Both the position numbers and the translations under genes were made by a program. From a virus, in the IMG/VR virus record IMGVR_UViG_3300045988_054096, positions 55,944 to 119,943 of that record: a stretch of DNA of 64,000 nt; one strand, written 5' to 3'. Within the stretch, counting starts at the first letter, position 1; every line of letters begins with the position of its first letter. Below are positions 10,415 to 62,506 of the stretch, piece after piece. The notes below the pieces were generated by a model that saw only the letters and a program-made list of their open reading frames with translations, was not told where the DNA came from and ran no database searches.

Positions 10415-10467
10415 AGAGTTAAAGTCCTTAGTAGTTCCGTCTTTAAAAGTAGCTCTACAAGCTGTGT

Positions 10468-25309: not shown

Positions 25310-25844
25310 ATTCCCATAAATAATTGTAAGCAGATTTACGTTTTCCAGAGCAACACATAGAAATCAAAGAGTGATTATTTACTCCTATCGTCTTAACAGC
25401 TTCAGCCATACTAGAGTATATTGCTATTACTTCTCCATCAAATGATCTCTGGATAACTTTCTTCTTTCTAGCAGAGTTACCTTTCTCAATTACATTACTA
25501 TAATTTAGATTATTAAGGCTTGTTGACCATTCTAAGTTAGTAGCTCTATTGTTTGACTTATCCTCATCAATATGGTTGACCTGTGGAAGATTCTCTGGGT
25601 TAGGTATAAACGCCTCAGCTACTAACCTGTGAATCTTTGGATTTTTCTTCTTTCCATCCCTCGACAAAGATACGTACAAATATCCTGCACCATCCGAATT
25701 TGGTTTTAAAATCTTTTCTGGGATGGTTCTATGACCAGTTATCTTATGTGAAACGACTCTTGCAAGGCTTTTCACATTACCTATGTTACTAACTTGATAC
25801 AAACCTTCATAATCCTTAATATCCTTCCAAATTTCATTCATCAC
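25302..25844 (-). CDS. HNH homing endonuclease (NUMOD4 + HNH_3)
   Basis: 180 aa; WKDIKDYEGLYQVSNIGNVKSL NUMOD4-like N-terminus; VNHIDEDKSNNRATNLEW HNH motif. Confidence 0.7.
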   Translation of the reverse strand: MMNEIWKDIKDYEGLYQVSNIGNVKSLARVVSHKITGHRTIPEKILKPNSDGAGYLYVSLSRDGKKKNPKIHRLVAEAFIPNPENLPQVNHIDEDKSNNRATNLEWSTSLNNLNYSNVIEKGNSARKKKVIQRSFDGEVIAIYSSMAEAVKTIGVNNHSLISMCCSGKRKSAYNYLWEYG

Positions 25845-26155: not shown

Positions 26156-26461
26156 TTATGATTTGAGATAGTCTACTATTGCTTGTAACTTATTAGCATC
26201 TTCTTTCTTAAATATAAATTCGTCAAAATCCCCATATATGGAACGGTGACCGAAAATATACTTAATAGCATTCTTTATACGTTTCCAGAAGGAGTCTGGT
26301 TTTAAGTGAATCCAAAGATAAACGTCCCCTCCTCTCTCAGGGAAGTAGTTAAATGTTAATTGATGCTCTGGACTATCACATTGACATATAAAAGATTTGC
26401 TTTCCATATCTGCTAAATAATTTACAAGGTAGTATCCATCTACTTTACCTTTATATTTCAT
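26156..26461 (-). CDS. hypothetical protein
   Basis: 101 aa ORF. Confidence 0.3.
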   Translation of the reverse strand: MKYKGKVDGYYLVNYLADMESKSFICQCDSPEHQLTFNYFPERGGDVYLWIHLKPDSFWKRIKNAIKYIFGHRSIYGDFDEFIFKKEDANKLQAIVDYLKS

Positions 26462-26706
26462 ACTAATAAATTAAAAAGCTCCCTAACTGCGCTCTTGACA
26501 TTACATCGTGGACCGTAGGATTTTACACCAGGGGGATTCAGGTTTGGAGCTTAGCTACTATAATCCCTTATTCACCATGTCCTATTCTCTTGAGAGTTTC
26601 AGAAGGTTCCTCATAGAACCTATCTACAGGCACTATGATTTCGTGTCCTGCGCCTTCTTCAACCTTGGAATCAATAATCTTTAAAGACCACAGAGCTTGA
26701 ATAAAT

Positions 26707-27228
26707 CTAAGCTCTGGATTCTTGCACAGAGTTTCCCTCAGAAGCTCCAACAGCTTTTGGTTGGATTTTATTCTTTCGCTTACGTTTTTGTCCATGATAA
26801 AATTCTCCTTTAAACGAATCCTCGTTGAATCCTAGTCTATCACGAGTGATGATATTCAGTTGTTCCTCTTTTTCCTTTCTCTTAGCCTCTATTTTATAGA
26901 GGATCCACTTATTTTCTTCCTCTTTTCGTTTTTCTTGTTCCCTTTCAAGTTTCCTTCGCATCTTTGCTTGTTCAGCAAAGTACCTATAACATTCTTTGGA
27001 ACCTCGCTCACAAGTATAGCTATCACACTTGTACACTGGAGATATATAGTCGTCAGGTTTTATGCCCTTAGAAGCTAGCTCAAACCTTAGTTTTATGGCT
27101 AGTGTTTTATTGATATAACCTCCAGAGTCCATAATATGTCTATATCGTCTGTAACCAATTCTTCCATAGATGTAGGCATTAACTCTCCAACTGGAATCTA
27201 TTATCTTATAAAGAGGGGTTGGGATCAT
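26707..27228 (-). CDS. hypothetical protein; reading frame stays open ~45 codons upstream of its ATG and may be the C-terminal part of a gene continuing from 27347..27616 through a frameshift
   Basis: 173 aa ORF; upstream in-frame sequence LKLLHGYVDEHEETPGERWPNEYYFDDDRVLQKRERKGRKNKL looks protein-like and abuts the stop of ORF 27347..27616. Confidence 0.3.
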   Translation of the reverse strand: MIPTPLYKIIDSSWRVNAYIYGRIGYRRYRHIMDSGGYINKTLAIKLRFELASKGIKPDDYISPVYKCDSYTCERGSKECYRYFAEQAKMRRKLEREQEKRKEEENKWILYKIEAKRKEKEEQLNIITRDRLGFNEDSFKGEFYHGQKRKRKNKIQPKAVGASEGNSVQESRA

Positions 27229-29971: not shown

Positions 29972-30594
29972 TTTCCTATCTTAGTTTCTTCATCATATTT
30001 CCGATAACGATAATAACTTCTTTCTCCACATTTATTCTTAGATTTATAAGTATCTAATTGTGAATCACAGTTAGGACATATACATCTAAGATTATCCCTC
30101 TTATTATTAGAAGCGTGACCATCTATATGATCCAGAACAAACACTAGAGGTTTCCCATTCCACTCTGGTTTCATTCCACATATAGCACAAACTCCTCCCT
30201 GTTCTTGAAGTATATCGTCTTTGAAATGTTTAGGAATATAATTGGCTCGCATTATAGAAGGATCCCCATCTAGTATTTTTTGATAGCCTATTTTATGATT
30301 ATATTCTAGTCCACATTCAGCACAACAGAACTTATTGGAATATCCACTTACCTTTTTAAATTCTTTTCCACAGTTCGCGCAGACTCTTGTAGGAACCTTT
30401 ATAACTCCTTTATTGAAAGTTTCTCTATCGTTAACAACTCTTCTTTGTGGAAGTTCAATTCCAAGTCTTAGTGCAACTTTTTTAATATTAGATCCACTGC
30501 AATTATATCTTCTTCCTATTTCTTCATAGCTTAATTTTTCGACTAATATCAATTGTTCTAAGTTTTCTTTCTCTGATTCCCATTTACTTTTCAT
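29968..30594 (-). CDS. HNH endonuclease with N-terminal HTH
   Basis: 208 aa; HTH EIGRRYNCSGSNIKKVALRLG; C-terminal CAICG...VLDHIDGHASNNKRDNLRCICPNC HNH motif. Confidence 0.55.
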   Translation of the reverse strand: MKSKWESEKENLEQLILVEKLSYEEIGRRYNCSGSNIKKVALRLGIELPQRRVVNDRETFNKGVIKVPTRVCANCGKEFKKVSGYSNKFCCAECGLEYNHKIGYQKILDGDPSIMRANYIPKHFKDDILQEQGGVCAICGMKPEWNGKPLVFVLDHIDGHASNNKRDNLRCICPNCDSQLDTYKSKNKCGERSYYRYRKYDEETKIGK

Positions 30595-30706
30595 AATTCA
30601 TATAATTTGTTCAAATATACGAATAATAAATTTCGAATCAAAGTAAGATTACGAATATTTGCTTAAGCTGTTGAACTTAGGAGTAGATATAAGGTCTTAA
30701 ATTTGG

Positions 30707-30781
30707 TACACCCGGTGGGATTCAAACCCACAACCTACGCCTTAGAAGGGCGTTGCTGCTATTCAGTTGAGCTACGGGTGC
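30707..30781 (-). tRNA. tRNA-Arg (anticodon UCU)
   Basis: GCACCCGTAGCTCAACTGAAT...loop CTTCTAA...GTGGGTTTGAATCCCACCGGGTGT. Confidence 0.6.
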
Positions 30782-30883
30782 CTATAAGCAGGGCAATTTA
30801 GTTTTTCAGGTCATTTCGGACTCTCTTCGAAAAGTTTTATAGTGCTATACGCTATAACCACTCGCCCTACTGTCAGAACACTT

Positions 30884-30952
30884 ACTTTTGGGATTCGAAC
30901 CTCTTAATTAGAAATTAAGTGTGCTACCATTACACCACATATCCTATAAAAT
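30884..30952 (-). tRNA. tRNA-like, nominal anticodon UCU, Gln-type D-arm, weak T-stem/acceptor (possible pseudo-tRNA)
   Basis: GGATATGTGGTGTAATGGTAGCACACTTAATTTCTAATTAAGAGGTTCGAATCCC; D-arm identical class to tRNA-Gln and the CUA suppressor; acceptor pairing not found. Confidence 0.3.
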
Positions 30953-31039
30953 GGCGGATAATAGAAAGTAAATATAATAACTCTTAATAACTATCCCAAG
31001 TTAAAAAGTGTTAATCAAAAGATAGCTTGTTGAAGGAAA

Positions 31040-32956
31040 TTACTTCACTTCTTCAAACGTTTCAGGCTTCTCCTCTGACTCTGGCTTTGTCTCGATAGCC
31101 TTCTTGCCAAACATATCCTTGAAGGTCTCCTTCAAAGGAATGCTACGGAGCAGATCCAATGCAGGATTCAAGTTCTCGGCAGTCTTAGCCATGAAGTTAC
31201 CTGCGGTATTCTCGTTACCATACACAGTAACCTCACCAAGATGAACGTGTTCAAACATCTGAGCAGATGCTTCGGCAATACCCTTAAGCTGATCAACAGT
31301 CTTATACTGTACAATCATCTGCGGAGTCATACCACACTCAATCATCTTCTCAACTGCCTTAGCAGGAGCTAACTCAATTGCAGTAATCTTATCAGCTTCA
31401 GCCATAAGAGATGCTCTCTTACCTTCTGCCTCAGCTAACAGTTTCTTCTTGGTACCTTCAGCCTCTGCCTCCATGATTTGCTGAGTAGCTTGAGCTTTCG
31501 CTTCGGCTTCCTTAGTAATCTTAGCTGCTTCCGCTTCTGCTTCCAAGATGGCCTTCTGCTTGATTGCCTCTGCCTCAATTGTAACTTGTTCCTTCTTCTT
31601 CTGAGCAGGAACAATTACTTCGGCGTGCAATTTTGCTTCAGTTGCCTTAGCTGCAACCTCATTAACTTCAACTTGCTTTTCCTCACGAGTCTTAGCAACT
31701 TCCATTTCTGCATTGACCTTAGATACACCTGCTACACGCTGTGCTTCTGCCTCAGCCTTAGCAGCTTCTCCCTTAGCCTTAGATACTTCAATGGTTGCTG
31801 TCTGTTCAGCTACGCCAGCTTGCTTGTCAGCCTCAGCCGCACGCTGTCTCTTCAGAGATTCATACTCTGCAACCTTAGCTTCCTGCTCATTGATAGCCTT
31901 CTGAGTTTCTGCTTCCTGCTCTTGCTCGGCTTTAGCCATACGAATTTGCTTCTGAGCCTCTGCCTCTGCTTGAGCTGAAGCTGCTTCTGCTTCAGATTTA
32001 GCTACAGATGCTACTGCTTCTGCCTTACGAGCTGCTGTAGCTGCTTCTGCTTCAGCCTGTGCCTTAGCTACATTAGCTGCCTTCTCAGCCTGCTGATTTG
32101 CTACACCAGATTCCTTAACCTTGTCAGCTTCTGCCAACTTGATTTCCTTCTCCTGGTTAATTTCAGCTACACGTACCTCTTGCTGTTGCTTAGTTTCAGC
32201 TACCTGAGTGGCTCTTTCCTTCTCTGCATTTGCTACAGCAATTTGACGCTCCTTCTCAGTATCTGCGATCTGGATGTCTCCTTTCTTCTTCTCTTCAGCA
32301 ATGTCAGCAAGTGCCTGAGCTTCTGCCTTAGTAGCAGCTTTCTTACCAAGATTTCTGATGTAGTTTGCATCATCAGTAATATCAGCATTGTTGATATTGA
32401 TGATACTGAAACCAACCTTGTTCAACTCAGTTTCAATATTCTCTTTAGCTTTGCCCAAGAACTTAACACGGTCAGCATTGATTTCTTCAATAGTCATTGT
32501 AGCCATCAGACTTCTTACCTCACCAATAAGAATATCCTTGATTTGGTCAGAAATTTCTTGTGGACTTGACGTTAAGAATCTACTTGCTGCATTCTGCATA
32601 AGAGTGTCAGTAGTTCCAATACCAGTCGTTAAAGTCACAGGAATAGTAACCTTAATCATCTGACTAGAAACTCCTGCTACAGATGCCTGAATTTGAATAG
32701 GTTTAAGAGACATCTTCCTCCAATCCTGGATCACAGGGAATACAAATGTACCTCCACCATGAATAATCTTGGAAGGAAGAATCACAGTTTCACTCTTCCC
32801 AGTAGTGGGATTGGTTACTGACTTCTTGCCAGCTTTACCAAACACTACTAAGATTTCATCACTTGCGCAACGACGATAGCGCGACATCAGACTAATAAGG
32901 GTCAAGATCACGAGAACTACTATAATTCCCGCGATAATTAAACTTGAAGTAAGCAT
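31040..32956 (-). CDS. flotillin-like protein (SPFH/band-7 domain with long Ala/Glu/Lys-rich coiled coil)
   Basis: 638 aa; N-terminal TM, SPFH domain, extended AEAEA/KAEAEA coiled-coil repeats (source of spurious plus-strand shadow ORFs). Confidence 0.55.
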   Translation of the reverse strand: MLTSSLIIAGIIVVLVILTLISLMSRYRRCASDEILVVFGKAGKKSVTNPTTGKSETVILPSKIIHGGGTFVFPVIQDWRKMSLKPIQIQASVAGVSSQMIKVTIPVTLTTGIGTTDTLMQNAASRFLTSSPQEISDQIKDILIGEVRSLMATMTIEEINADRVKFLGKAKENIETELNKVGFSIININNADITDDANYIRNLGKKAATKAEAQALADIAEEKKKGDIQIADTEKERQIAVANAEKERATQVAETKQQQEVRVAEINQEKEIKLAEADKVKESGVANQQAEKAANVAKAQAEAEAATAARKAEAVASVAKSEAEAASAQAEAEAQKQIRMAKAEQEQEAETQKAINEQEAKVAEYESLKRQRAAEADKQAGVAEQTATIEVSKAKGEAAKAEAEAQRVAGVSKVNAEMEVAKTREEKQVEVNEVAAKATEAKLHAEVIVPAQKKKEQVTIEAEAIKQKAILEAEAEAAKITKEAEAKAQATQQIMEAEAEGTKKKLLAEAEGKRASLMAEADKITAIELAPAKAVEKMIECGMTPQMIVQYKTVDQLKGIAEASAQMFEHVHLGEVTVYGNENTAGNFMAKTAENLNPALDLLRSIPLKETFKDMFGKKAIETKPESEEKPETFEEVK

Positions 32957-32972
32957 TAATTAAAAAATTATT

Positions 32973-33470
32973 TTAAGAAATGTAATAAATTCCATCCTTG
33001 TAAGAGGTTATTTTTAGGATTTCTCCAGGCTGTACCTCTCTATCAGCCTTACAGATTATTTCTATATAATCAGGGTTGCAAATAACACAGCTACATAGTC
33101 CATTCTCAAGAGGACAATAAATAGTTACTGACCTCCCCACTAACTCATCGCCTTCTTTCCTAGTAGGTTCTGAATTAAACTTCATACATAGTTTATAGAC
33201 TAGATATAGAATAAACATAAGAGCAATACCAGCAACACAGGCTATAGCAATCGTAATTGCAGTGACTTTACCTATAACCATGAGCCACCCAGAAAATCCC
33301 ATAGCAAAGTGAATCAGTCCCTTAAATGACAGAAGATCACTAACACTGAAATCAACGTTTCCATCAAAGTCCACGTCAAGGTCAGTATCAGAGATTCCAA
33401 GATTAGATAAGATAAACTGAACGATAAATATGCCATAGGATATTATACCCAAGATGTAATACCATTCCAT
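32973..33470 (-). CDS. NfeD-like membrane protein (partner of flotillin)
   Basis: 165 aa; multiple TM helices then C-terminal beta-rich domain; immediately upstream of flotillin as in yqiJ-yqiK pairs. Confidence 0.35.
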   Translation of the reverse strand: MEWYYILGIISYGIFIVQFILSNLGISDTDLDVDFDGNVDFSVSDLLSFKGLIHFAMGFSGWLMVIGKVTAITIAIACVAGIALMFILYLVYKLCMKFNSEPTRKEGDELVGRSVTIYCPLENGLCSCVICNPDYIEIICKADREVQPGEILKITSYKDGIYYIS

Positions 33471-33473
33471 AGA

Positions 33474-33818
33474 TCAAAAGGTTAAATTATTAGGAAACAA
33501 CTCATTCTCGAAATCGACATCATTCCCTATATAATCGCCATTAGCAGACTGATTAGCAACAAGAGCTCTCAGTCTTACTGTACCCATGAATACAGACTTG
33601 GCAATAGGTTCTGGATAAACCCTTTTAAGAAGAGTCTGGATATTTATACGGCTATCTATATAATTACTGAAATCTTCTGCATACATTAAAATAGCATTGA
33701 AGATATATAGCCACAATTCAATCTTCTTAAAATTATAGGTAGGACGAAGCAGTCTAAATTCAATAGTCTTGTTTACTTTGTAACAGATAAGGTTGATGAA
33801 GTTTACCCAATAATACAA
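33474..33818 (-). CDS. hypothetical protein (TTG start in track; true start uncertain)
   Basis: 114 aa ORF. Confidence 0.25.
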   Translation of the reverse strand: MYYWVNFINLICYKVNKTIEFRLLRPTYNFKKIELWLYIFNAILMYAEDFSNYIDSRINIQTLLKRVYPEPIAKSVFMGTVRLRALVANQSANGDYIGNDVDFENELFPNNLTF

Positions 33819-33984
33819 ATGTTATAGCAAGTTCTTTATCTTGCATCCTAGAGTTTCCCCTAGGTATCGGACTATATCATCATCTACATGAGATGTTGGG
33901 CGCTCGTGGGCACATTATATTCTCCTAATAGAGTTTCAGTGCCTAGTCTCTGAACCTTCTAGAGTTGTTAAGCTCTAGCTCGGC

Positions 33985-38683: not shown

Positions 38684-38790
38684 CGGAGGTGGCAGGACTC
38701 GAACCCGCACGCCGTGTTACCGACTACTGGTGGTTTTCCTACTACTCATATGAGTAGCTCGACTATCTCTTTACCATATCATTACTGACT
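38684..38790 (-). other. tRNA-like 3' module (T-arm GCGGGTTCGAGTCCTGC + acceptor-like CACCTCCGCA) preceded by a 16-nt perfect hairpin; no matching 5' acceptor found
   Basis: seen on minus strand; could be a fourth permuted Y-RNA-like element or a tRNA remnant. Confidence 0.2.
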
Positions 38791-38882
38791 TAGGTAGCTG
38801 GTGTATAGTCTGTACACATTTAGGAATTAATTCCACTTAGCTCGGGATTATTATCATTTATAGGGCTGATACCTTCCCCGAA

Positions 38883-39327
38883 TTAGCCAGCTTCTACTTC
38901 AGAAGTTTCCTCCTGAGCACTCGTACCCCAATCTAATGTTACTATATATTTATCCCACTTGTCTGTTAACGTAAGAGTATTCTTAACATTAATAATACTT
39001 GTAGGAATTTCATACATAGTTCCTTCTACCGTCACTATAAATAGTACATCACAACTAGTATTGTCAAATGGTCTAGTTTTAGAAGTTCCAGAAGAACCTC
39101 CACAATTCTTCAATAGGACCTCATAGTTTCCAGATTCTTTTCTAAACTAAGTTGTTTTTACAGATACTCGTAGTAACTTTCCATCTTTATCCACTACTAA
39201 ATCGTATTTTTGGGTATCGTTAAGTGGCAGTAATACAGGAATACAATTAGCAGTATAATATGCTATTGCTCTTCCTAGTCCCACATTACCCTAATGTGAT
39301 TTGTAATTAGATGTCCAAGGATTCATA
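38883..39327 (-). CDS. hypothetical protein, TAG-recoded (2 in-frame TAG)
   Basis: ATG at 39325-39327; MNPWTSNYKSH*GNVGLGRAIAYYTANCIPVLLPLNDTQKYDLVVDKDGKLLRVSVKTT*FRKESGNYEVLLKNCGGSSG... continuous into track ORF 38883..39113; TAA stop. Confidence 0.5.
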
Positions 39328-40158: not shown

Positions 40159-40209
40159 AATTACAGAGTACAATTTCTAAACATTACAATTTAAAAGATT
40201 GGTGTTTGA

Positions 40210-40238
40210 AATGAGTTGCTGTTTGTACTCTTCTACTA
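40210..40238 (+). promoter_or_regulatory. conserved intergenic motif copy (GAGTTGCTGTTTGTACTCTTCTACTAACG)
   Basis: consensus aaTTGCTGTnnGTnnTCTTaTta; ~57 nt upstream (minus-strand sense) of tRNA-Cys 5' end. Confidence 0.35.
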
Positions 40239-40646: not shown

Positions 40647-40665
40647 CATAACATACAAGTTAAAG

Positions 40666-41152
40666 TGGAGATGGAGGGAATCGAACCCTCGTCCAAACAA
40701 TCCTTAATAATAAGATAACGTGTGTCTCTATTTTATTTATCAGCTGTTGAGGTTCAGCTTATTTAGTTATATGACACTAACAAACTAGGGCTGACCAGAA
40801 TGTCAACGCTCCACCACCTACTTTTTAACGCTAAAGCAGGAAAACGAGTGTTTGTGGTGAGTCAACCACGCAGGCACACATCCCTTCTGTTTAAAGACAA
40901 TAATAGGAGATTCAGCTCTACTAACCTGTGGCTTTCGAGTTAAGCACAGTGGCTTATATCCTTCTGCTGTACACCTCTTCCGTTTCTAGGTCTCTCCCTG
41001 TAACCCGACTCAACACATCAACAGCTGAGCCAGCTGCTTAGGCAGCCATTCTTACTTCATTGTAGTTTGCATTTATTGTTTTCCTTCGTTTAAAGAGATC
41101 GCGCTCTACACGTCTTATTACCTCGTAATCGTTGTCAATACCAAGCATCCCC
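40666..41152 (-). ncRNA. ssrA: tmRNA (ssrA), ~487 nt, tag peptide ANYNEVRMAA
   Basis: 5' GGGGATGCTTGGTATTGACAACG pairs with 3' CATCTCC-A; 3' end TTTGGACGAGGGTTCGATTCCCTCCATCTCCA closely matches tmRNA consensus GGACG.GGGTTC.A.TCCC.CCA.CTCCA; internal frame GCA AAC TAC AAT GAA GTA AGA ATG GCT GCC TAA (41070 to 41038) followed by hairpin GCAGCTGGCTCAGCTG. Confidence 0.6.
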
Positions 41153-41158
41153 AATAAT

Positions 41159-41277
41159 CAGAAATCTATTCAACTTGTCTTTTGCTCTGCCAACTGAGCT
41201 ACCTCCTGTTTATAATGTCTAGTCAGGAGGATGAGACTCGAACTCATGACTCAAAGATCCCTTCAATAGCTTTGCTG
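41159..41277 (-). ncRNA. Y-RNA-like (YrlA-like) RNA with permuted tRNA-like domain
   Basis: minus strand 5'-CAGCAAAGCTATT GAAGGGA TCTTT GAGTC ATGAG TTCGAGT CTCAT CCTCCTG A [CTAGACATTATAAA] CAGGAGG TA GCTC AGTTGGCA GAGC A AAAGA CAAGTTG AATAGATTTCTG-3': T-arm + 3' acceptor precede 5' acceptor + D-arm; AAAGA/TCTTT and CAGCAAAGCTATT/AATAGATTTCTG form a long terminal stem with 7x7 internal loop where an anticodon arm would be. Confidence 0.45.
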
Positions 41278-41298
41278 TTAGATTTCTTATTAGTGAAG

Positions 41299-41372
41299 TT
41301 GGGAGAACGGGATTCGAACCCGCAACCTCTACATCCCAAATGTAGTAGACTAGCCTATTGTCCTATCTCCCA
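41299..41372 (-). tRNA. tRNA-Pro (anticodon UGG)
   Basis: TGGGAGATAGGACAATAGGCTAGTCTACTACA TTTGGGA TGTAGAGGTTGCGGGTTCGAATCCCGTTCTCCCA. Confidence 0.6.
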
Positions 41373-41425
41373 ATAAGTGCAGAATACTTCTTCTTAGCTT
41401 TATCAAATCCCAAAATTGATGCTCA

Positions 41426-41454
41426 AGAAAATTGCTGTAAGTATTCTTATTATT
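41426..41454 (+). promoter_or_regulatory. conserved intergenic motif copy (AAAATTGCTGTAAGTATTCTTATTATTAA)
   Basis: between tRNA-Ile and tRNA-Pro; ~54 nt upstream of tRNA-Pro 5' end on minus strand. Confidence 0.35.
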
Positions 41455-41470
41455 AAATCAAAAAGGCGAG

Positions 41471-41544
41471 TTGGGTGACTGGGACTTGAACCCAGAACCT
41501 CCTGATTATCAGTCAGGTGCGCTGACCAGTTGCGCCATCACCCA
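41471..41544 (-). tRNA. tRNA-Ile (anticodon GAU)
   Basis: TGGGTGATGGCGCAACTGGTCAGCGCACCTGA CTGATAA TCAGGAGGTTCTGGGTTCAAGTCCCAGTCACCCA. Confidence 0.65.
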
Positions 41545-41597
41545 ATATACAGAAGACCTGTTTTAGCGTTTTCAATTTACAAGATTGATGCTTAAAC

Positions 41598-41626
41598 AAA
41601 GTTGCTGTAGGTCTTCTTATTAATAT
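41598..41626 (+). promoter_or_regulatory. conserved intergenic motif copy (CAAAGTTGCTGTAGGTCTTCTTATTAATA)
   Basis: directly after stop of gene 41629..43077 and ~60 nt upstream of tRNA-Ile 5' end. Confidence 0.35.
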
Positions 41627-41628
41627 GT

Positions 41629-43077
41629 TTAGTCTTTATAATCGTCTATTGATCCATCACAATGTTCCTCCATCATCTTAATGAATCTTCTCATCGTTTC
41701 CTCATTCTTCGGAAGATGTAGAATGTCAAGTAAAGAGTCAACAAACTTCTTCTCAGGAGTTACTGACATATCCTTAGTTCTGGATAGCTCTACCTGACGC
41801 AGATAGGATTGAACTGAATACTTAATGTCGTCGGCCTTAACCTCGCACTGATTGGCAAGAACCATCATTGATTTAACTTTCTCGATGATTTCAGCCATAA
41901 ATGCTGGAGCTATATGACTAGCCTCAATAAACTTACATACATCAGTAAGGTCATCAAGAATAGTATAACATCCAATCTCAAATGACTTTCTAATGAATTG
42001 TTCTGCGGTTTCAGCGTCAAGAGGACCCATAGAGATGATAGTTCCTACACGCTTTCCTCTCAGGAAAGTAGGTTCTATAAGCTCAATATGATTAGTAGTG
42101 AACAAAGTAATGACATTCATGTCCTTAGTATCACCACCATCAAGAGTGTTCAGAATATCCTGCATGGCAGAATCACGATTTCCTCTCGTGACTTGATCAA
42201 TATCCTCAACAAAGATTAAGACCCCATGTCCAGACTGATCAATTATCTTGGACATTCTCAAAGCCTCTGCAAGCAACTTTGGATCCTTTAGATAAATAAA
42301 CATCCAATTATTAGCAACAGCCTTCTTAGCCAACTTAAAGGCTAACAAAGTTTTACCTGTACCATAACCACCTTCTAACAAGGCTCCGAACTTCAAAGGA
42401 ATACCTTTCTCCAAGCACATTGTTGGATTCATAATTCTAGCATAGATTGGTCTGAGAGCATATTCAGTTTCTTTGCTAAGAACCATGAGTTGACGGTCAA
42501 TACCGCTAAGGTCGAGTATCTTTGGATCATTAATGTCTGAAATTTCCAAAGCCTGTCCTTTGTAAATGGAATTTGTTCTCAAATTGTGCTTAGTAACCTC
42601 AATAATATCATCCATTAAGGACGAGAAACGGAACTGACACTTACCAGTAATAACCAAGTCATGTGTACTACTATCGTAGTTAATGTTAATGCTAGAGCCT
42701 TCTCCAAGTCCTTCTAATGAGATGTCGCCATATGGAGCTTTAACCCTTGTTCCGTCTGCAAGAGTAATGTCCACGGTCTGAACACTTGATTCACCAGATG
42801 GATTCCGTTGTTCTTTTGAAACAACTGCTCCAAAGACTTGAGAGATAGCTTGGTTAAGCTGATAAATACCATCATTACGAAAGCAACGGATCCTATAGTT
42901 GATCTTTGCCATCTTTTTGGATTGCTTGAGCTCATTGTCAATGTAATCAAGTGCATCAGCATACTTGATTCCAGGCTGAGACATGATCTTCACAAACTTG
43001 TCTTTCATAGCCATTTCATACTGATTTACTTTCTGTTCTAACACTGAACTCTTGCCTCCTTGAATAATTTCTTCCAT
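41629..43077 (-). CDS. AAA+ ATPase
   Basis: 482 aa; Walker A GGYGTGKT, Walker B LIFVEDID. Confidence 0.5.
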   Translation of the reverse strand: MEEIIQGGKSSVLEQKVNQYEMAMKDKFVKIMSQPGIKYADALDYIDNELKQSKKMAKINYRIRCFRNDGIYQLNQAISQVFGAVVSKEQRNPSGESSVQTVDITLADGTRVKAPYGDISLEGLGEGSSININYDSSTHDLVITGKCQFRFSSLMDDIIEVTKHNLRTNSIYKGQALEISDINDPKILDLSGIDRQLMVLSKETEYALRPIYARIMNPTMCLEKGIPLKFGALLEGGYGTGKTLLAFKLAKKAVANNWMFIYLKDPKLLAEALRMSKIIDQSGHGVLIFVEDIDQVTRGNRDSAMQDILNTLDGGDTKDMNVITLFTTNHIELIEPTFLRGKRVGTIISMGPLDAETAEQFIRKSFEIGCYTILDDLTDVCKFIEASHIAPAFMAEIIEKVKSMMVLANQCEVKADDIKYSVQSYLRQVELSRTKDMSVTPEKKFVDSLLDILHLPKNEETMRRFIKMMEEHCDGSIDDYKD

Positions 43078-43341
43078 CTAAAAATAATTTAAAATTTCAG
43101 TTTACTTATTTTCCTTTTCATTGCTCGATAGTTATCAAGCGTAGTTGTTAAACATCCCAAACATAGAGTACCATTATCTTTAGTAATAGTCAAATTCTTT
43201 TCCTCTATGGTAGAACTAATAGTATGACTCTTAACTGCTTCGTCAAGAACAGATAGTCTTATAGCTGTATTCTTGCAAAACACTATATCCTTCTCAGGAA
43301 TATAAATTACGTCATACCCTTGAATTTCTCCTACTACATAC

Positions 43342-43539
43342 CTATCGCACATTTGCATACACCATTATTCCTACTATAAGTAGGATTACCAGAACAAGTG
43401 CTATAGGTATCCACAGAGGTGATAATACCCATAACCAAGACCATGTTATTACTCCACACAATTTTAACACAATGAAGGCTACTAACAAAATAGATAGTAC
43501 ACCTGGACCTTGATAAATTATTTGCTTCTCCATAATCAT
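43342..43539 (-). CDS. small membrane protein
   Basis: 65 aa, two TM helices. Confidence 0.3.
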   Translation of the reverse strand: MIMEKQIIYQGPGVLSILLVAFIVLKLCGVITWSWLWVLSPLWIPIALVLVILLIVGIMVYANVR

Positions 43540-43553
43540 TTAGATATTTCTTG

Positions 43554-43626
43554 AGGCCCCACTCGGATTCGAACCGAGGTTTCAAGATTACAAATCTAGT
43601 GTTCTAACCAACTAAACTATAAGGCC
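43554..43626 (-). tRNA. tRNA-Thr (anticodon UGU)
   Basis: GGCCTTATAGTTTAGTTGGTTAGAACACTAGA TTTGTAA TCTTGAAACCTCGGTTCGAATCCGAGTGGGGCC. Confidence 0.6.
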
Positions 43627-43718
43627 AATTAAGTGAGGAAGAAAAGATTCGAACTTTCAAAACAATCATACCTAGAATTTGATCTGCTTTACCATTTTGC
43701 ATACTTCCTCATTAAGAG

Positions 43719-43791
43719 CGGAGGGTAGGGGACTCGAACCCCTACTCCCAAGATTAGTTATCCTGTGCTTTAACCATTAAGCTAACCCTCC
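43719..43791 (-). tRNA. tRNA with atypical anticodon loop UAACUAA (nominal anticodon ACU with A33; loop contains CUA); identity undetermined
   Basis: otherwise perfect 73-nt cloverleaf GGAGGGTTAGCTTAATGGTTAAAGCACAGGA TAACTAA TCTTGGGAGTAGGGGTTCGAGTCCCCTACCCTCC-G. Confidence 0.45.
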
Positions 43792-43862
43792 AAGGACTAA
43801 CTTGAAAATCCTCAATGATAGCCCTTGGTTGTGAGAAATGCGTTCAATAGACTTATGCTTAA

Positions 43863-44001
43863 GCTCTTTATTTATGCCTTGCGTGTTAAACCACTTCACC
43901 AATGCCCCATGTTAGTAAAATATAAATAGAGGGGCATAGGGGATTCGAACCCCCGATAGCAAGGTTTAATAATTATTCATTATCAGTAAATATCCACTGG
44001 C
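43863..44001 (-). ncRNA. Y-RNA-like RNA with permuted tRNA-like domain (third copy)
   Basis: T-arm GGGGGTTCGAATCCCCT + 3' acceptor ATGCCCC, 22-nt linker, then 5' acceptor GGGGCAT + D-arm TGGTGAAGTGGTTTAACAC; flanking CCTTGC/GCAAGG terminal stem. Confidence 0.35.
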
Positions 44002-44110
44002 TTCTCACTCTAACGCTAAAGCTAAAGCTCTCGACTCAATGCTGACGCTAAAATCTAGGATTATTTTAGGCTAAGTCTTAAGCTAAAGCTCTAGTCGATA
44101 TTTGTCTTAT
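43990..44110. repeat. short direct repeats AAGCTAAAGCTCT(C/A)G(A/T)C and GCTAAAG/GCTAAAA iterations
   Basis: seen at ~44012-44032 and ~44076-44098, between gene 44114..44905 and the Y-RNA-like element. Confidence 0.4.
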
Positions 44111-44113
44111 TTA

Positions 44114-44905
44114 TTATTCTCCGTAGTGTAAGAAGTTAATCATGCCTTCAACATCCAAGTTTGGATCCTCAGATTCCACATCATTAACTTCTTTCAGTGC
44201 TTCAATAACAGCAGCCAAAAGCTGACTTCTACGACGAAGTAACTCAGCACGCTGTCTTTGAGTCCACGCTCCTGTAAACTTCTGAAGAGTATAGTCTCCT
44301 GTTTCCACAGTTCTCTTCTTGATAGTTGTCTTAGCATTGTAGTTTGCAGGCAACTTAGCAGGATCGAGATTCGGATCTTTCAGGATGACTTCCTCAGACT
44401 CAGTAGTACGAGTTACACCTGTCTGCATAGGAGTTTGGAAGATTTCTCTACCAGCATACTCACCATCAGTGCAAGGTTCCCACACTTCTGCATCAGAACG
44501 AACAGGAATGTTGTTGTACATTTCTTCCCACTCTTTCTTAGTGAGAACAGTCTTCAATCTCATAAGGTCAAGAGCAGTTAGGAAACCGAAAGAGACATTG
44601 CCTACTTTCAGTTCTACTTTCTTAGCACCCTTAGAGTTGGTAGATTCTATAGAGAAGAGATTCTTCAGGTAAGGAACAGCATTTTCCTCAAACCATTGTA
44701 ACTTCTCATCTACAGTTGTTGCTACCTTAGTAGTACCCATGTAACGGGCATCTTCTTGATATCCTTCACGAGGTTTGAACGTTTTCTTGATTCCTTCAAA
44801 CATTCCTTGTTTGTTCTTGAAGAATGCGAAGTAATCACCAACCATACGATTGAATTGTGCTGCGCCATGTTCTACCTTGGCCAGCAAAGTGTTCATCTTT
44901 AACAT
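44114..44905 (-). CDS. hypothetical protein
   Basis: 263 aa ORF immediately downstream of Ro60-like gene. Confidence 0.3.
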   Translation of the reverse strand: MLKMNTLLAKVEHGAAQFNRMVGDYFAFFKNKQGMFEGIKKTFKPREGYQEDARYMGTTKVATTVDEKLQWFEENAVPYLKNLFSIESTNSKGAKKVELKVGNVSFGFLTALDLMRLKTVLTKKEWEEMYNNIPVRSDAEVWEPCTDGEYAGREIFQTPMQTGVTRTTESEEVILKDPNLDPAKLPANYNAKTTIKKRTVETGDYTLQKFTGAWTQRQRAELLRRRSQLLAAVIEALKEVNDVESEDPNLDVEGMINFLHYGE

Positions 44906-44907
44906 AC

Positions 44908-46650
44908 TTATTTCTTTTTACTTGTTTTACGTTTCGGTTTATTTACTACGACTTGCAATCTGTTCAACAAGTCCTGATCCATTGCAACCATGAAGAGTTC
45001 TTCTGCATTCTTTGGAGTACGTTTCATAGTACCAGTTCCCACGATGAATGCTACGGCTGATGGATCATAGCCAGACATATAGAAGAAGTTTGGAGCATCT
45101 GCAAAGTCTTCAAACTTAACTGCGTTTCCACTACCATAATAGTAATTAGGAATATCCCACATAATTAATTTGAAGTTCTTCACATACTCTTCGCTGAATC
45201 CAGCTTCCTTTAAGCGTCTGATAGCAGTTTGGAAGTTCGTACTGTCATTCCCACTTCCATATCTAGCAGGATTCAACTCCCCATCAGACACAAGAAGCAA
45301 TCCAGTTGGAAAGTCTTCATCCTTAACTCCTCTCTGTTTAAGATTGATAAACAAATCTATAACAGATTGGAAGTTAGTTCCACCATAGGCTTCACATCTA
45401 TCGTTGATATACTTATCAACTGGTGTGTCACCTTTCCACTGATGTAACTTACATTTGTCTGCAAACTCTGCAAATGAGTTGGTAAACGGACCAGTCAAGA
45501 ACTCAGAGAAATACAACGCCATAGATTTGCCTATATCATAAGCTGATACATTACATCCTCTAGCCTTAGAAGTCATAGAAGAGGAAGTATCTCTTACAAC
45601 AAGGAGTCTAGAATTAGTGTTAACTCCTTCCTTACCAGTCTTTACAAGCTGTGCAAACTGTGCATTGATTGTGTTCTCCTTATAGTCCTCAATGTGGTAA
45701 CAATTATAGCCACTACCAAGAGGAGTGAACAATTCAAATACAAAGCCTGTATACTTCGCAACTGGTTTAGACTGTATCCACTTAGAATACTTCTCAGTAA
45801 GATTGTGATTCTTCAGGAACTCAGAACCAACGAGAATAGCCAATGCTCTACCAGCAATATGATCGAAGTTAATCTTATCATACAACTGTTGAGAAATCAG
45901 CTGTTGCCATTGGTGAGCTTTTCCCTCAGATTTCATCTTACGATAAGCCTTATAAGCAGACTCTTTCTCCAAATCTGGAGAGAACTTACGAGCTATCCAT
46001 CTACCAATTAAGGTATCAGCCTGAGACTCCACAGTCTTACAGTTCTTGTTAGTACGGATAGCAGGCATATACTTTCTTACCAAGTGAGTAGTCTCTGGAT
46101 TTGTGAATCCAGCAGCTATTACAAGGAAGAAGAAATTCCAATCAAGCTTTCTGCCTTCCCACCCATGATACTGTAAGTCAAGGGATAACATCTGGAAGAC
46201 ATCTTTCCAAGAACCAGCGGCAACGAAGTATGCAAAGTTTGCTTTGAACGTCTTCGGTTGGTTGATAGCCAACCACAACATTCTCATAATGCCTTCGTTC
46301 TTCAAACCCTGTCCTCTCTGTACTTCCAACTCTTCGATAGAACCATCATCCTTTACTACCTTTGACTTACGAGTAATCAATCTGATATACACTGCAAGTT
46401 TCAGACACAACTTCGGATCAAGGCTCCAGAGCAACTCCATGTCCTTTGCTACTTCCTTATAAGAGCGAGGCTCTTTAAAGTATGATATGGCAGCGAAGTT
46501 ATCTACAAAGTCATTGCCAGAAGTGTTGTACTTCTTAGCTCCATTTCCAGATTGGACTACAGAAGTTTCCTTCATCCCTTCTTTCAGAAATTGATTTTCA
46601 GTTCCCTTGTTGGTATCCATAAGGGAACTAAGTTTCTTTTCAAATACCAT
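44908..46650 (-). CDS. rsr: Ro60/Rsr ortholog (TROVE-like helical N-terminal region + C-terminal von Willebrand A domain)
   Basis: 580 aa; vWA MIDAS DTSSSM, GGTNF, LLLVSDGE, and C-terminal MSGYDPSAVAFIVG closely parallels Ro60 DVSASM...GGTDCS...MCGFDTGALDVI; no in-frame TAG. Confidence 0.5.
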   Translation of the reverse strand: MVFEKKLSSLMDTNKGTENQFLKEGMKETSVVQSGNGAKKYNTSGNDFVDNFAAISYFKEPRSYKEVAKDMELLWSLDPKLCLKLAVYIRLITRKSKVVKDDGSIEELEVQRGQGLKNEGIMRMLWLAINQPKTFKANFAYFVAAGSWKDVFQMLSLDLQYHGWEGRKLDWNFFFLVIAAGFTNPETTHLVRKYMPAIRTNKNCKTVESQADTLIGRWIARKFSPDLEKESAYKAYRKMKSEGKAHQWQQLISQQLYDKINFDHIAGRALAILVGSEFLKNHNLTEKYSKWIQSKPVAKYTGFVFELFTPLGSGYNCYHIEDYKENTINAQFAQLVKTGKEGVNTNSRLLVVRDTSSSMTSKARGCNVSAYDIGKSMALYFSEFLTGPFTNSFAEFADKCKLHQWKGDTPVDKYINDRCEAYGGTNFQSVIDLFINLKQRGVKDEDFPTGLLLVSDGELNPARYGSGNDSTNFQTAIRRLKEAGFSEEYVKNFKLIMWDIPNYYYGSGNAVKFEDFADAPNFFYMSGYDPSAVAFIVGTGTMKRTPKNAEELFMVAMDQDLLNRLQVVVNKPKRKTSKKK

Positions 46651-47455: not shown

Positions 47456-47520
47456 CGGTGCATACGGGAATCGAACCCGTGATAGACAGTCACGTATCCT
47501 AGCCGTTAGACCAATGCACC
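47456..47520 (-). tRNA. short (65 nt) tRNA-Asp-like (anticodon GUC); anticodon stem and T-stem share nucleotides, possibly atypical or degenerate
   Basis: GGTGCATTGGTCTAACGGCTAGGATA CGTGA CTGTCTA TCACG GGTTCGATTCCCGTATGCACC-G. Confidence 0.35.
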
Positions 47521-47795: not shown

Positions 47796-47864
47796 TAAAA
47801 TGGAAAACTTAAAGTTCAAAAATCAGAATACCATCTTTTTATTCTAAACCACACTTTAGAAATA

Positions 47865-47893
47865 CAAAATTTGCTGTTGGTATTCTTATACTC
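47865..47893 (+). promoter_or_regulatory. conserved intergenic motif copy (CAAAATTTGCTGTTGGTATTCTTATACTC)
   Basis: consensus match. Confidence 0.35.
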
Positions 47894-49131: not shown

Positions 49132-49599
49132 GAGAGTGTTCCCAGTCTAAAAGCCGTGGCTAATAGGTGGGAACTAGCATATATGCTAGAACTGCCTAGG
49201 AAGGCAGTAAAGGAAGAAAAGAGAGACTAGCTTGTGTAGGCTTACCTCTACCATACATAGTCTTAGTCTCTGTCACTACATAAAGTAGCCTGTACTCGTT
49301 ACATAAATGAGTGAGCCAACTCCAGCAGTTTCTTGTTGAAACTCTTTCAAAGTCACCAGTTTATAGATTACTGGAAACTGAGGTACTTTACTAAAGTGAG
49401 AATACATGAACCTTGTTAGTCTCAAGGTCCTCGTTCACCTGAGCTGCTATTCGCATAGCATCACCGATTTTATCAAATGTTGTAGCCCTGTTAGGGTTAC
49501 TTACAATAATGATTTCTCCGTCTTGTCCTTGCCTTATAAAGGCTTTAGGACTAATCTTTAAAATGTACATATTCTTCTATTTTTAGGTTAATATTGTGT

Positions 49600-49677
49600 A
49601 CTGGTGGAAGGACTTGAACCTTCGACCTTGATGGTATAAGCATCCTGCGCTAACCGACTGCGCCACACAGTGTAGAC
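49600..49677 (-). tRNA. tRNA-like with anticodon UAU (Ile?), imperfect acceptor
   Basis: CACTGTGTGGCGCAGTCGGTTAGCGCAGGATG CTTATAC CATCAAGGTCGAAGGTTCAAGTCCTTCCACCAGT. Confidence 0.35.
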
Positions 49678-53549: not shown

Positions 53550-53644
53550 ACAGAAAATCAGATATGTATTCATTTAAAGTGCTCTAAACCAGCTGAGCTA
53601 TACCCGACGAATCGGATAGCAGGATTCGAACCTACGACCCCTTG
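53550..53644 (-). ncRNA. Y-RNA-like RNA with permuted tRNA-like domain (second copy)
   Basis: minus strand: TTCATTAATG...GTAGG TTCGAAT CCTGC TATCCGA T [TCG] TCGGGTA TA GCTC AGCTGGTTTA GAGC A CTTTAAATGAA; 3' tRNA half precedes 5' half with 3-4 nt linker; termini TTCATT/AATGAA pair. Confidence 0.4.
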
Positions 53645-53663
53645 CTTGGAAGGCATTAATGAA

Positions 53664-53692
53664 AAACAATTGCTGTTACATATCTTATTAGC
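53664..53692 (+). promoter_or_regulatory. conserved intergenic motif copy (AAACAATTGCTGTTACATATCTTATTAGC)
   Basis: abuts 5' end of Y-RNA-like element and follows stop of gene 53694..53939. Confidence 0.35.
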
Positions 53693-54696: not shown

Positions 54697-54877
54697 ATAC
54701 CAGAGTGCAATCACCCACTTGTCTGACCTAACGTCGCAGAGACCAATTTACGGCATTCATAACCCAAAGTATGCGTAGGGCTGCTCTCTAAGAGCAGAAT
54801 CAAAGTAATACAGAGTACATTTAGGGATTTGAACCCATTCCTTTAAAGTGTGACAAACTTCATTGTTAAACCATAGA

Positions 54878-54906
54878 AATTGCTGATGTACTCTTGTTAT
54901 TAACCC
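54878..54906 (+). promoter_or_regulatory. conserved intergenic motif copy, variant (GAAATTGCTGATGTACTCTTGTTATTAAC)
   Basis: consensus match with one substitution. Confidence 0.3.
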
Positions 54907-62400: not shown

Positions 62401-62470
62401 GTCCTCCCCCAAGGATTCGAACCCTGACCAAGTGGGTTAGAGCCACCTGTGCTACCATTACACCAGAGGA
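62401..62470 (-). tRNA. amber suppressor tRNA (anticodon CUA), Gln-like body
   Basis: TCCTCTGGTGTAATGGTAGCACAGGTGG CTCTAAC CCACTTGGTCAGGGTTCGAATCCTTGGGGGAGGA-C; perfect anticodon stem, loop C-U-CUA-A-C; D-arm GGTGTAATGGTAGCAC shared with tRNA-Gln(UUG) at 51134-51205. Confidence 0.65.
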
Positions 62471-62506
62471 GAATAAGGTTGCAGGAATTTCACCTGCAAA
62501 GTATTA

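Follow-up and report, generated by a model that had tools for sequence, protein, structure and literature searches.

A Ro60-fold protein and gene-linked small RNAs with a shared terminal handle: a probable Y-RNA-like ribonucleoprotein in a tRNA-rich virus

A 64-kb stretch of viral DNA (positions 55,944 to 119,943 of the IMG/VR record IMGVR_UViG_3300045988_054096; this whole stretch of 64,000 nucleotides is referred to as the window) encodes, within an array of tRNA genes, a 580-residue protein with the predicted fold of Ro60 and at least nine small RNAs that share a terminal stem with conserved flanking nucleotides, here called the handle. Together these probably make up a Y-RNA-like ribonucleoprotein (RNP), composed of a distinct Ro60-fold family and a distinct RNA handle that the protein would bind. 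Ro60/Y-RNA particles are a classic RNA surveillance system that is still poorly understood. An initial annotation of the same DNA had described a Ro60/Rsr orthologue accompanied by three Y-RNA-like RNAs with circularly permuted tRNA-like domains (E1, E2 and E3 below); these domains are present, but the common denominator of the window RNAs is the stem/UUACAGCAA/UCUG handle, not the permuted tRNA-like layout. The case for a second Ro/Y-like system is built on the Ro60 fold, the gene-linked distribution of the RNAs, the covariation of their helices and the match of the handle to a stable class of eukaryotic RNAs.

The Ro60-fold protein

The protein gene has the following location and domain composition.

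44908-46650, minus strand: 580-residue Ro60-fold protein, N-terminal helical region and C-terminal vWA domain containing a MIDAS (metal-ion-dependent adhesion site), DUF2828/DUF7788

The C-terminal part of the protein matches Pfam DUF7788 (36.8 bits, cut-off 27.1) and the N-terminal part matches DUF2828 at 28.5 bits, slightly below the cut-off of 29; close homologues carry both domains in precomputed Pfam annotation, and the protein also belongs with PHROG 850, "RNA-binding protein" (E=2.8e-33). The vWA motifs DTSSSM, GGTNF and VSDGE, on which the initial annotation had relied, are present as quoted, and the MIDAS (DxSxS...T...D) is complete, with D354/S356/S358, T425 and D456 invariant in 62 homologues. 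When an AlphaFold2 model built on the homologue alignment (pLDDT 89.6, pTM 0.89) was compared with the PDB using Foldseek, the top nine matches were all Ro60, over approximately 580 aligned columns, including the Xenopus and human proteins and the Thermus phage phiRo60 entry 9KOP. Matches confined to the vWA domain rank below these, and Ro60 is the sole full-length structural match. At the sequence level, Pfam TROVE (PF05731) is absent from the hmmscan results at E<=1, which contain only DUF7788 and DUF2828; no Ro60 is found among PDB chains at E<=10, either by phmmer with the single sequence or with a 62-sequence profile; and NCBIfam and PADLOC scans gave no named family and no defence-system match. 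The restriction of full-length structural similarity to Ro60, combined with the invariant MIDAS, argues that the modelled protein has the Ro60 fold (a helical-repeat domain plus vWA) and belongs to a family, DUF2828/DUF7788 or PHROG 850, that sequence methods keep separate from TROVE. Of the proposed orthology to Ro60/Rsr, then, the fold has been borne out by structure comparison, whereas the expected TROVE similarity and a hidden Markov model match to solved Ro60 proteins were not found.

The handle RNA family and its distribution

The handle reads 5' AGAnnnC-UUACAGCAA ... GnnnUCU-G 3' and consists of a terminal stem of 7-9 bp whose 5' strand leads straight into a single-stranded UUACAGCAA and whose 3' strand is followed by a G. 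It is shared by at least nine RNAs of the window, E1 and E2 among them: eight exact units and one variant with UCAGCAA, all of which lie on the minus strand within 40.1-55.1 kb. A covariance model (R1), trained on 60 short viral units of which none came from the window or from the named phages discussed below, finds six of the window units with scores of 24-68 bits, all on the minus strand. The units are listed here, the two with permuted tRNA-like interiors last.

41551-41617, minus strand: short handle RNA, 67 nt; R1 68.2 bits, E=1e-10; 6 nt before tRNA-Ile
41381-41447, minus strand: short handle RNA, 67 nt; R1 56.8 bits, E=2e-8; 8 nt before tRNA-Pro
40165-40231, minus strand: short handle RNA, 67 nt, with tRNA-Lys(UUU)-like loop CUUUUAA; R1 67 bits, E=1.7e-10; 6 nt before tRNA-Cys
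47825-47886, minus strand: short handle RNA, 62 nt; R1 48.1 bits; Rfam Dicty_Class_I_RNA 21.9 bits
47726-47787, minus strand: short handle RNA, 62 nt; R1 40.4 bits
54929-55035, minus strand: handle RNA with 82-nt interior; 9-bp stem AGAUAGCGU/ACGCUAUCU, ACAGCAA, 3' G
54812-54894, minus strand: variant handle RNA (UCAGCAA); R1 24.5 bits, E=0.07
41160-41287, minus strand: E1 complete unit, handle RNA with permuted tRNA-like interior
53560-53685, minus strand: E2 complete unit, handle RNA, complete permuted tRNA mimic

The six middle pairs of the stem are different in every window copy and yet perfectly compensated, as in AAUCUA/UAGAUU, AUACUU/AAGUAU, AGACCU/AGGUCU, GUACAA/UUGUAC, UAGCGU/ACGCUA, UAUGUA/UACAUA and AUACCA/UGGUAU. 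E1 and E2 have a 9-bp outer stem, with ACAGCAA immediately after its 5' strand and G after its 3' strand. Four units end 6-8 nt short of the 5' ends of tRNA-Ile, tRNA-Pro, the transfer-messenger RNA (tmRNA) and tRNA-Cys, from which we infer that RNase P would set their 3' tails. A possible tenth unit lies at 29665-29490 on the minus strand, its end just upstream of tRNA-Leu(UAG). Its motif is the variant GCAGCAA, and its 9-bp stem AGAACACUU/AGGUGUUCU encloses an interior of 151 nt and is followed by A instead of G.

The relation between gene and RNAs was explored in the surroundings of homologues of 43-84% identity, 997 kb in 80 viral loci, with a scan that looked for ACAGCAA and, ending 0-2 nt before it, one strand of a stem of 7 bp or more. 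It returned 378 units on the gene strand, compared with 20 on the opposite one and 27 in shuffled sequences, and 77 of the 80 loci contain at least one unit; the bare ACAGCAA heptamer is itself skewed, occurring 497 times on the gene strand and 75 times on the other. Many of the units stand in tandem, 4-5 nt apart, in arrays starting from the stop codon of the protein gene. The consensus of 281 distinct units is A-A-G-A-n-n-n-C-U-U-ACAGCAA ... G-n-n-n-U-C-U-G, where the AGA, C, UCU and G positions were not imposed by the scan and ACAGCAA, which was, is invariant by construction; in the consensus stem the outer and inner pairs are conserved while the middle pairs covary freely.

Beyond these loci, units occur at a distance of 1 kb or less from the gene in cyanophage Lbo-JY46, Felixounavirus wV8, Listeria phages LMTA-34 and CKA15, Enterococcus phage VRE9_2 and Bacillus phage MrDarsey, and R1 finds units in every named phage except an Erwinia jumbo phage. 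In the Leptolyngbya phage Lbo-JY46 a tandem handle array, with five units found by R1, comes right after the homologous gene, and in wV8 the handle flanks a permuted tRNA-like core 1 kb downstream of it. Saprospiraceae assemblies, one of them a complete 8-Mb chromosome, carry from one to several units directly after a homologue of 27-33% identity, and some unit-bearing loci have no tRNA within 6 kb. In the reverse direction, a strict RNA-only pattern applied to the viral collection retrieved 12 stretches, of which five are on contigs known to carry the gene and three have the gene 150-280 nt upstream, the other four being too short to show whether it is present. A separate observation concerns wV8 (L007), where an annotated minus-strand hypothetical coding sequence, gp048 (13990-14247), overlaps the plus-strand handle RNA at 14023-14148 and may be a spurious call.

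Two homologues of the protein have already attracted attention. The Felixounavirus homologue Bas63 gp130 has a Ro60-like structure, is encoded upstream of tRNA genes and counters the ppl defence, and the authors of that study, a preprint on PhageMaP, speculate that some of the "tRNAs" are Y RNAs (PMC11482910). The Listeria phage protein CKA15_055, Rsr-like by HHpred, is present in virions, and its gene is found downstream, by no more than 2 kb, of the three non-coding regions with the highest transcription in the genome, for which the authors suggest possible Y RNAs (PMC12282133). Both proteins are of the same family as the window protein and have the same genomic position directly beside tRNA genes; they differ in that neither paper identified the RNAs, the handle family being defined in the present analysis. 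R1 places three handle units at 25,289-25,553 of CKA15, in an unannotated 396-nt gap directly upstream of CKA15_055. Another CKA15 region, 26,236-26,727, named in PMC12282133 as the most transcribed one, corresponds by position to a ROOL RNA of the sister phage LMTA-34. In the latter phage (L008) the ROOL RNA (10032-10583, 88.5 bits, slightly below the gathering score of 99.1) and a drum RNA (7545-7643, 50.2 bits, above the gathering score) are in the tRNA array approximately 1 and 4 kb upstream of the Ro60-like gene, and RtcB and RNA ligase genes follow 1.3-5 kb downstream of it. No description of the handle RNAs, whether of their consensus, their distribution or the embedded tRNA mimics, was found in the literature searched.

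If the handle RNAs are the ligands of the protein, a candidate explanation becomes available for two published observations, the ppl counter-defence by the Felixounavirus homologue and the packaging in virions of the Listeria homologue, whose gene neighbours the most transcribed non-coding regions of its genome. More generally, tRNA-rich phages that infect Proteobacteria, Firmicutes, Cyanobacteria and Bacteroidota commonly carry a second, sequence-unrelated Ro60-fold family, which is also present in some bacteria, and this DUF2828/DUF7788 family gains testable candidate RNA partners along with a candidate recognition element.

Unit interiors and genomic setting

The interiors of the units vary. 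Some are hairpins resembling an anticodon arm, others are permuted tRNA-like domains, and one relative has an ordinary tRNA in this place. The permuted domains were sought on both strands of the 64 kb with a regular expression in which a T arm (5-bp stem, loop of the UUCRANN type) and a 7-nt 3' acceptor strand are separated by a linker of 3-79 nt from a 5' acceptor strand of perfect complementarity, itself followed after two nucleotides by a D-arm. There are exactly three matches, the same three elements that had been proposed from inspection.

41247-41184, minus strand: E1 core, 15-nt linker (permuted-core pattern)
53635-53581, minus strand: E2 core, with a UUCG tetraloop as linker (permuted-core pattern)
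43954-43883, minus strand: E3 core, 22-nt linker (permuted-core pattern)
43863-44001, minus strand: E3, permuted core 43883-43954, no ACAGCAA handle, downstream of the DUF7873 gene

The permuted cloverleaf is the minimum-free-energy fold given by RNAfold for each of the three, in agreement with the predicted layout. The boundaries first assigned need some correction: E1 extends over 41160-41287, and for E2 the interval 53550-53644 cuts off the 5' strand of the unit, which occupies 53560-53685. Paired termini with internal loops, likewise predicted for all three, apply to E1 and E2 with their outer stems but not to E3, whose terminal helix has only 6 bp (CCUUGC/GCAAGG) and in which the shared terminal module is absent. 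On the strand of the protein gene, E3 and E1 are 0.9 kb and 3.6 kb downstream and E2 is 6.9 kb upstream.

The interior of E1 contains a T-arm, a 7-bp acceptor with a 15-nt loop, a D-arm and a 5-bp anticodon-stem analogue that, in E1-type units, extends as a rod into the handle and leaves no anticodon loop; the unit ends 7 nt from the 5' end of the tmRNA. E2-type units, as read from their sequences, are complete circular permutations of a tRNA, with a tetraloop-closed acceptor (UUCG in E2) and a canonical 7-nt anticodon-like loop (CUUCCAA in E2, CUUGUAA in many relatives); the handle interrupts the anticodon stem in its 5' strand. E3 is part of a conserved non-coding block that is co-conserved with the DUF7873 gene in approximately 21 viral loci, that gene being missing from some relatives (L002, L005). 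Compensatory acceptor changes are seen among E3 relatives (ATGCCCC/GGGGCAT vs ACGCGCC/GGCGCGT) together with changes in the anticodon analogue. A further feature of E3 relatives, in L022-L041 and L046 about 250-450 nt past the DUF7873 stop, is a conserved acceptor-loop insertion of up to ~150 nt between ACGCGCC and GGCGCGU.

Across the 80 loci, strict permuted cores number 48 on the gene strand and one on the opposite strand, a disproportion that excludes chance, and 35 of the 48 are inside handles. RNAalifold, applied to a MAFFT alignment of 32 hybrids (a handle around a permuted core), recovered the terminal stem, T arm, acceptor and D arm, with double compensatory changes at 18 of the 20 pairs. 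Since the hybrids had been pre-selected for pairing, synteny provides the stronger evidence: the order tRNA-Pro/E1/tmRNA is syntenic in L001/L002/L005 with acceptor and T stems that differ by compensatory changes, and the positional homologue of E2 in L002 (2323-2455) is built from other stem sequences.

Anticodon-arm-like structures recur in the short units: of 143 distinct ones, 46 contain a hairpin whose stem has 4 bp or more and whose 7-nt loop reads YU-NNN-R-N, compared with 8.1 for shuffled interiors, and 21 of these 46 have CUUUUAA, the loop of tRNA-Lys(UUU). The window units 40231-40165 and 41617-41551 are of this type, the latter with a 5-bp stem and the loop CUUGUAA, while the variant unit 54812-54894 contains a 6-bp hairpin and a 7-nt loop, along with GGG-UUCAAAU-CCC, which resembles a T-arm. 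In L051, a handle unit at 2935-3050 encloses an ordinary, non-permuted tRNA (Rfam tRNA 53.4 bits, 2961-3033), which indicates that the handle can flank a complete tRNA.

All called genes of the window are on the minus strand, and the tRNA array (27.6-62.5 kb) comprises 26 tRNAs and one tmRNA, to which Rfam adds three extra tRNA-like matches and a group I intron. The neighbouring features most relevant to the RNAs and the protein are the following.

40663-41152, minus strand: one-piece tmRNA; Rfam RF00023, model positions 1-374, 97 bits
41629-43077, minus strand: AAA+ ATPase gene, 482 residues; Pfam AAA 50.5 bits
44114-44905, minus strand: DUF7873 gene, 263 residues, directly downstream of the Ro60-like gene; Pfam DUF7873 103.8 bits

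AAA+ and vWA proteins frequently cooperate. The AAA+ gene is conserved 1-2 kb downstream of the vWA/MIDAS gene in related phages, in the same order in L002/L003/L005, and its product is a possible partner of the vWA/MIDAS protein. The DUF7873 protein, which has weak similarity to the 5S rRNA-binding ribosomal family L5e/L18 (E=0.013) and whose gene accompanies E3 within one clade, may be an accessory protein. The initial annotation had placed the array in a recoded phage of Bacteroidota type, and this agrees with the nearest relatives, which are within Bacteroides and Alistipes genome bins, and with TAG recoding, which seems to apply to some genes of the phage. Two minus-strand frames, 24014-23235 (260 codons) and 63998-63348 (217 codons), contain 9 and 10 in-frame TAG codons, respectively, and yield plausible proteins when TAG is read as sense; two tRNAs with a CUA anticodon are located at 43633-43710 and 62401-62472. 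The Ro60-like gene has no in-frame TAG. The tmRNA tag is VQQKDISHCA according to ARAGORN and ANYNEVRMAA according to the resume codon placed in the Rfam alignment; for the orthologue in L005 ARAGORN itself yields ANYSEVKMAA, and its tag for the window tmRNA (and for that of L002) is probably wrong. The extra Rfam tRNA-model matches, above the gathering score and uncalled by ARAGORN, are at 49599-49671, 47456-47520 and 30890-30944 (minus strand); the two short ones (65 and 55 nt) could be truncated tRNAs or atypical ones. The group I intron match (38742-38945, minus strand, 61.1 bits against a gathering score of 50) adjoins tRNA-Trp.

Alternative explanations and known systems

The proximity of units to tRNA genes invites an explanation that leaves the protein aside, namely that they are signals acting in cis to process or stabilise polycistronic tRNA transcripts, for example as endonuclease sites or as hairpins in a leader, and co-occur with the gene because both frequent the same tRNA arrays. 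The ends of units 6-8 nt upstream of tRNA or tmRNA 5' ends, in the window and in L002, fit such signals, as does the unit in L051 with a tRNA inside it. Signals of this kind would, however, be out of place in the tRNA-free tandem arrays that follow the gene in Lbo-JY46 and several Bacteroidota loci, and they would be expected where they are missing: the window tRNAs at 27-31, 38 and 56-62 kb have no units, and the first 50 kb of phage T5 contains neither a homologue of the protein nor, in its 25-tRNA region, any unit, R1 likewise finding none. Moreover, the related Class I RNAs keep the stem and the motif although they are stable and independently transcribed (PMC7919456). We regard a purely cis-acting role as unlikely. 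T5 (L155) has seven annotated "stable RNAs with unknown functions", some of them tRNA-like, at 30284-33949, and an RNAX at 40848-41566; the ACAGCAA handle is absent from all of these.

A closer relationship to the known system would exist if the window encoded a bona fide Ro60/Rsr orthologue with YrlA, as do Salmonella, mycobacteriophages and phiLo, diverged too far for sequence models. Ro60 being the only full-length structural match would agree with this, as would the gene order, in which protein and RNA genes share a strand and are a few kb apart, as with rsr and yrlA (about 4 kb; PMC4201824). The Rfam YrlA model (RF02553) gave a mixed outcome when the suggested covariance search was carried out: its positions 1-114 align end to end with E1 (41159-41273) and E2 (53551-53663) at 33.8 bits each (E=3e-4 in a 14-kb scan), half of the gathering score of 69, E3 has no match to RF02553, and the best score in relatives is 39.4 bits. 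Almost all of the score comes from the T-arm, closed acceptor and D-arm, and most RNAs of the handle family lack a tRNA-like domain altogether. The motif GNCGAA(N0-1)G near the YrlA 5' end is the presumed Rsr contact (PMC4201824); in our RNAs neither it nor CGAA occurs, the aligned positions reading AGCUAUUG in E1 and CAUUAAUG in E2, and the conserved 5' motif is UUACAGCAA, with ACAGCAA invariant. Genuine TROVE Ro60 proteins accompanied by CGAA-motif Y RNAs do exist in mycobacteriophages and in Thermus phage phiLo, and the window protein shows neither TROVE nor detectable similarity to solved Ro60 in hidden Markov model searches, Pfam keeping DUF2828 and DUF7788 separate. Orthology to the classic pair thus appears improbable. 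The strict labels, Ro60 orthologue and YrlA, fail on the defining features that were examined, while the YrlA-type permuted layout (V/T-arm, closed acceptor, D-arm) holds for all three RNAs, with the covariation in its favour, and the functional analogy drawn by the initial annotation is reasonable.

The permuted elements might also be real tRNA genes, matured by excision of the handle, joining of the ends at the anticodon arm and opening of the acceptor loop by RNase P and RNase Z. Permuted tRNA genes of Cyanidioschyzon merolae are the model for such maturation. E2-type units do have every arm and a canonical anticodon-like loop of 7 nt, long acceptor loops often start with ACCA- or ACUA-like sequences, and RtcB or RNA ligases are encoded near the gene in some related phages. 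Yet stable tetraloops (UUCG, UACG) close the acceptor of E2-type units, the E1 type lacks an anticodon loop, the anticodon-like triplets differ between positional orthologues (UCC in E2, GUC in L002), and the same handle is present on short hairpins incapable of becoming tRNAs, all of which makes functional tRNAs very doubtful. The further idea that the elements are functionless, decaying tandem tRNA duplicates, with the 3' half of one copy beside the 5' half of the next, which the initial annotation had named as the truncated-pseudogene outcome that would count against it, would offer the simplest origin and make the complementary acceptor and anticodon-stem halves automatic, but it is rejected on the 48:1 strand bias, the location of 35 of 48 cores within handles, the compensatory changes in all helices across syntenic orthologues, the absence of overlap between any half and a called tRNA, and an identity of at most 70%, the background level, between un-permuted E1-E3 and any tRNA of the phage, so that they are not recent pseudogenes.

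Several points weigh against the interpretation as a Y-RNA-like RNP and temper it. The stability z-scores of E1-E3 (-0.67, -0.86 and -2.05) are non-significant, and E3 may not be a ligand at all, because the handle is missing from it. The protein gene is inside a tRNA array, which makes proximity in the window weak evidence when taken alone, and the argument for a link between gene and RNA therefore rests on the other genomes. The homologue of the Erwinia jumbo phage has no units within 8 kb, and several Myxococcota and Proteobacteria gene loci are without strict-motif units. Finally, the units were partly found by a scan that demands pairing, which biases the stem statistics; measures free of this bias are the contrasts between strands and with shuffles, the conservation of flanking letters, and R1 as an independent model.

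In the RNP that we consider probable, the nine or more small RNAs, presumably co-transcribed with the tRNA array, would be the ligands of the Ro60-fold protein, and the handle would be its binding site, the counterpart of the Ro60-binding helix of Y RNAs. Ro60 itself holds Y RNA at its outer surface and takes the ends of misfolded RNAs into its cavity. RNase P cutting of the tRNA or tmRNA 6-8 nt downstream would set the 3' ends of several units. The variable interior would serve as an effector module, variously an anticodon-arm mimic, the permuted tRNA body of E1 or the complete permuted mimic of E2, and the particle may act on tRNA-directed processes during infection. tRNA-Lys(UUU) is the substrate of several anticodon nucleases, and the mimicry of tRNAs and anticodon arms, with many tRNA-Lys(UUU)-like loops, points to a phage-host conflict over tRNAs. 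It is conceivable that the RNP is a decoy or tether for enzymes that recognize the tRNA shape or the anticodon loop (anticodon nucleases, repair enzymes, exonucleases), although the decoy role is speculation; its role could also be analogous to that of Rsr/YrlA in RNA repair and quality control.

The parallels with Ro60/Rsr-YrlA concern both components. In each system a ring-type helical domain is joined to a vWA/MIDAS fold, multiple small RNA genes are located on the same strand beside the protein gene, the RNA combines a terminal-stem module with an effector module that in some cases is a tRNA mimic, and there is an association with tRNA and RNA-repair genes. The acceptor stems have 7 bp in both, as in the YrlA of M. 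smegmatis, which is cut by RNase P (PMC4201824). The differences are equally plain: the window protein is DUF2828/DUF7788 with no sequence-detectable TROVE; the handle stem, UUACAGCAA and UCUG replace GNCGAA(N)G; RNA genes are more numerous per phage genome (at least nine here, up to ~10 in tandem elsewhere); most phage RNAs are ~60 nt with anticodon-arm-like hairpins and not tRNA bodies; some of the mimics have an anticodon loop; and the phage RNAs are embedded in tRNA arrays. With permuted tmRNA (RF04321) the elements share the succession of T-arm and 3' acceptor, intervening segment and 5' acceptor, with insertions of up to ~150 nt in the relatives of E3, but E1-E3 have no tag reading frame and no pseudoknots. 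An RF04321 match at 41038-41358 on the minus strand (48.4 bits, cut-off 47), running from inside tRNA-Pro across E1 into the 5' part of the ordinary tmRNA, is probably an artefact of a tRNA T-arm that adjoins the tmRNA. A ribozyme or RNase III-site reading of the handle was dropped for want of Rfam support and in view of the gene-linked distribution.

Rfam holds no family for the handle RNAs, and only Dicty_Class_I_RNA (RF01414) matches them repeatedly: at 39.3, 30.7, 26.2 and 19.2 bits in the Lbo-JY46 array, and in six viral loci with twelve full-length matches that score 27-36 bits, every one on the gene strand. All phage units stay below the gathering score of 41.5; in the window the best is 21.9 bits. 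Class I RNAs have a compensated 6-bp terminal stem, an invariant 5' G, a variable interior and a length of ~60 nt; beside the 5' stem strand is the 11-nt motif CCUUACAGCAA, whose first nucleotide joins the stem and whose U3, C6, C9, A10 and A11 are near-invariant (PMC7919456). They are stable, independently transcribed and cytoplasmic, and Kjellin et al. 2021 described the class as unique to dictyostelids and its mechanism as unknown, the only direct binder cited there being the RNA-recognition-motif protein Rnp1A/CIBP (PMC7919456). The RF01414 consensus, GaUcuC-CUUACAGCAAU...GagAuC-UG, shares with the phage units, once one extra C is allowed, the 5' GA...C, UUACAGCAA and the 3' ...UCUG; the phage motif fits that of Class I, with the preceding C-U-U found in 69%, 58% and 54% of units. 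The similarity extends to the 6-7 bp terminal stem with conserved outer G-C and A-U, inner C-G and a covarying middle, to (C)CUUACAGCAA directly 3' of the 5' stem strand, to the 3' end ...UCUG, and to variable AU-rich interiors, an apparent length of ~60 nt and multi-copy genes. Measured as stem-to-stem DNA intervals, short window units have 62-67 nt and long ones 107-128 nt, next to 42-65 nt for Class I. Phage units differ in having one nucleotide fewer between stem and motif and in their capacity for large tRNA-like interiors; Class I genes have a DUSE promoter element ~60 nt upstream, whereas the phage units are part of polycistronic tRNA arrays and would be released by processing.

We tentatively raise the possibility, which we hold to be less than even, that the handle RNAs and dictyostelid Class I RNAs are homologous and that the conserved function of the latter is to bind a Ro60-fold DUF2828/DUF7788 protein. 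Were this the case, Class I RNAs would not be a dictyostelid invention tied to multicellularity but the eukaryotic branch of a second Ro/Y-RNA-like system, one either ancient or gained by horizontal transfer, in which the variable interiors, here often mimics of tRNAs or anticodon arms, would specify the targets. The near-identity of the handle to the Class I terminal module offers a hypothesis for an abundant class of eukaryotic RNAs whose mechanism has been unknown since 2004.

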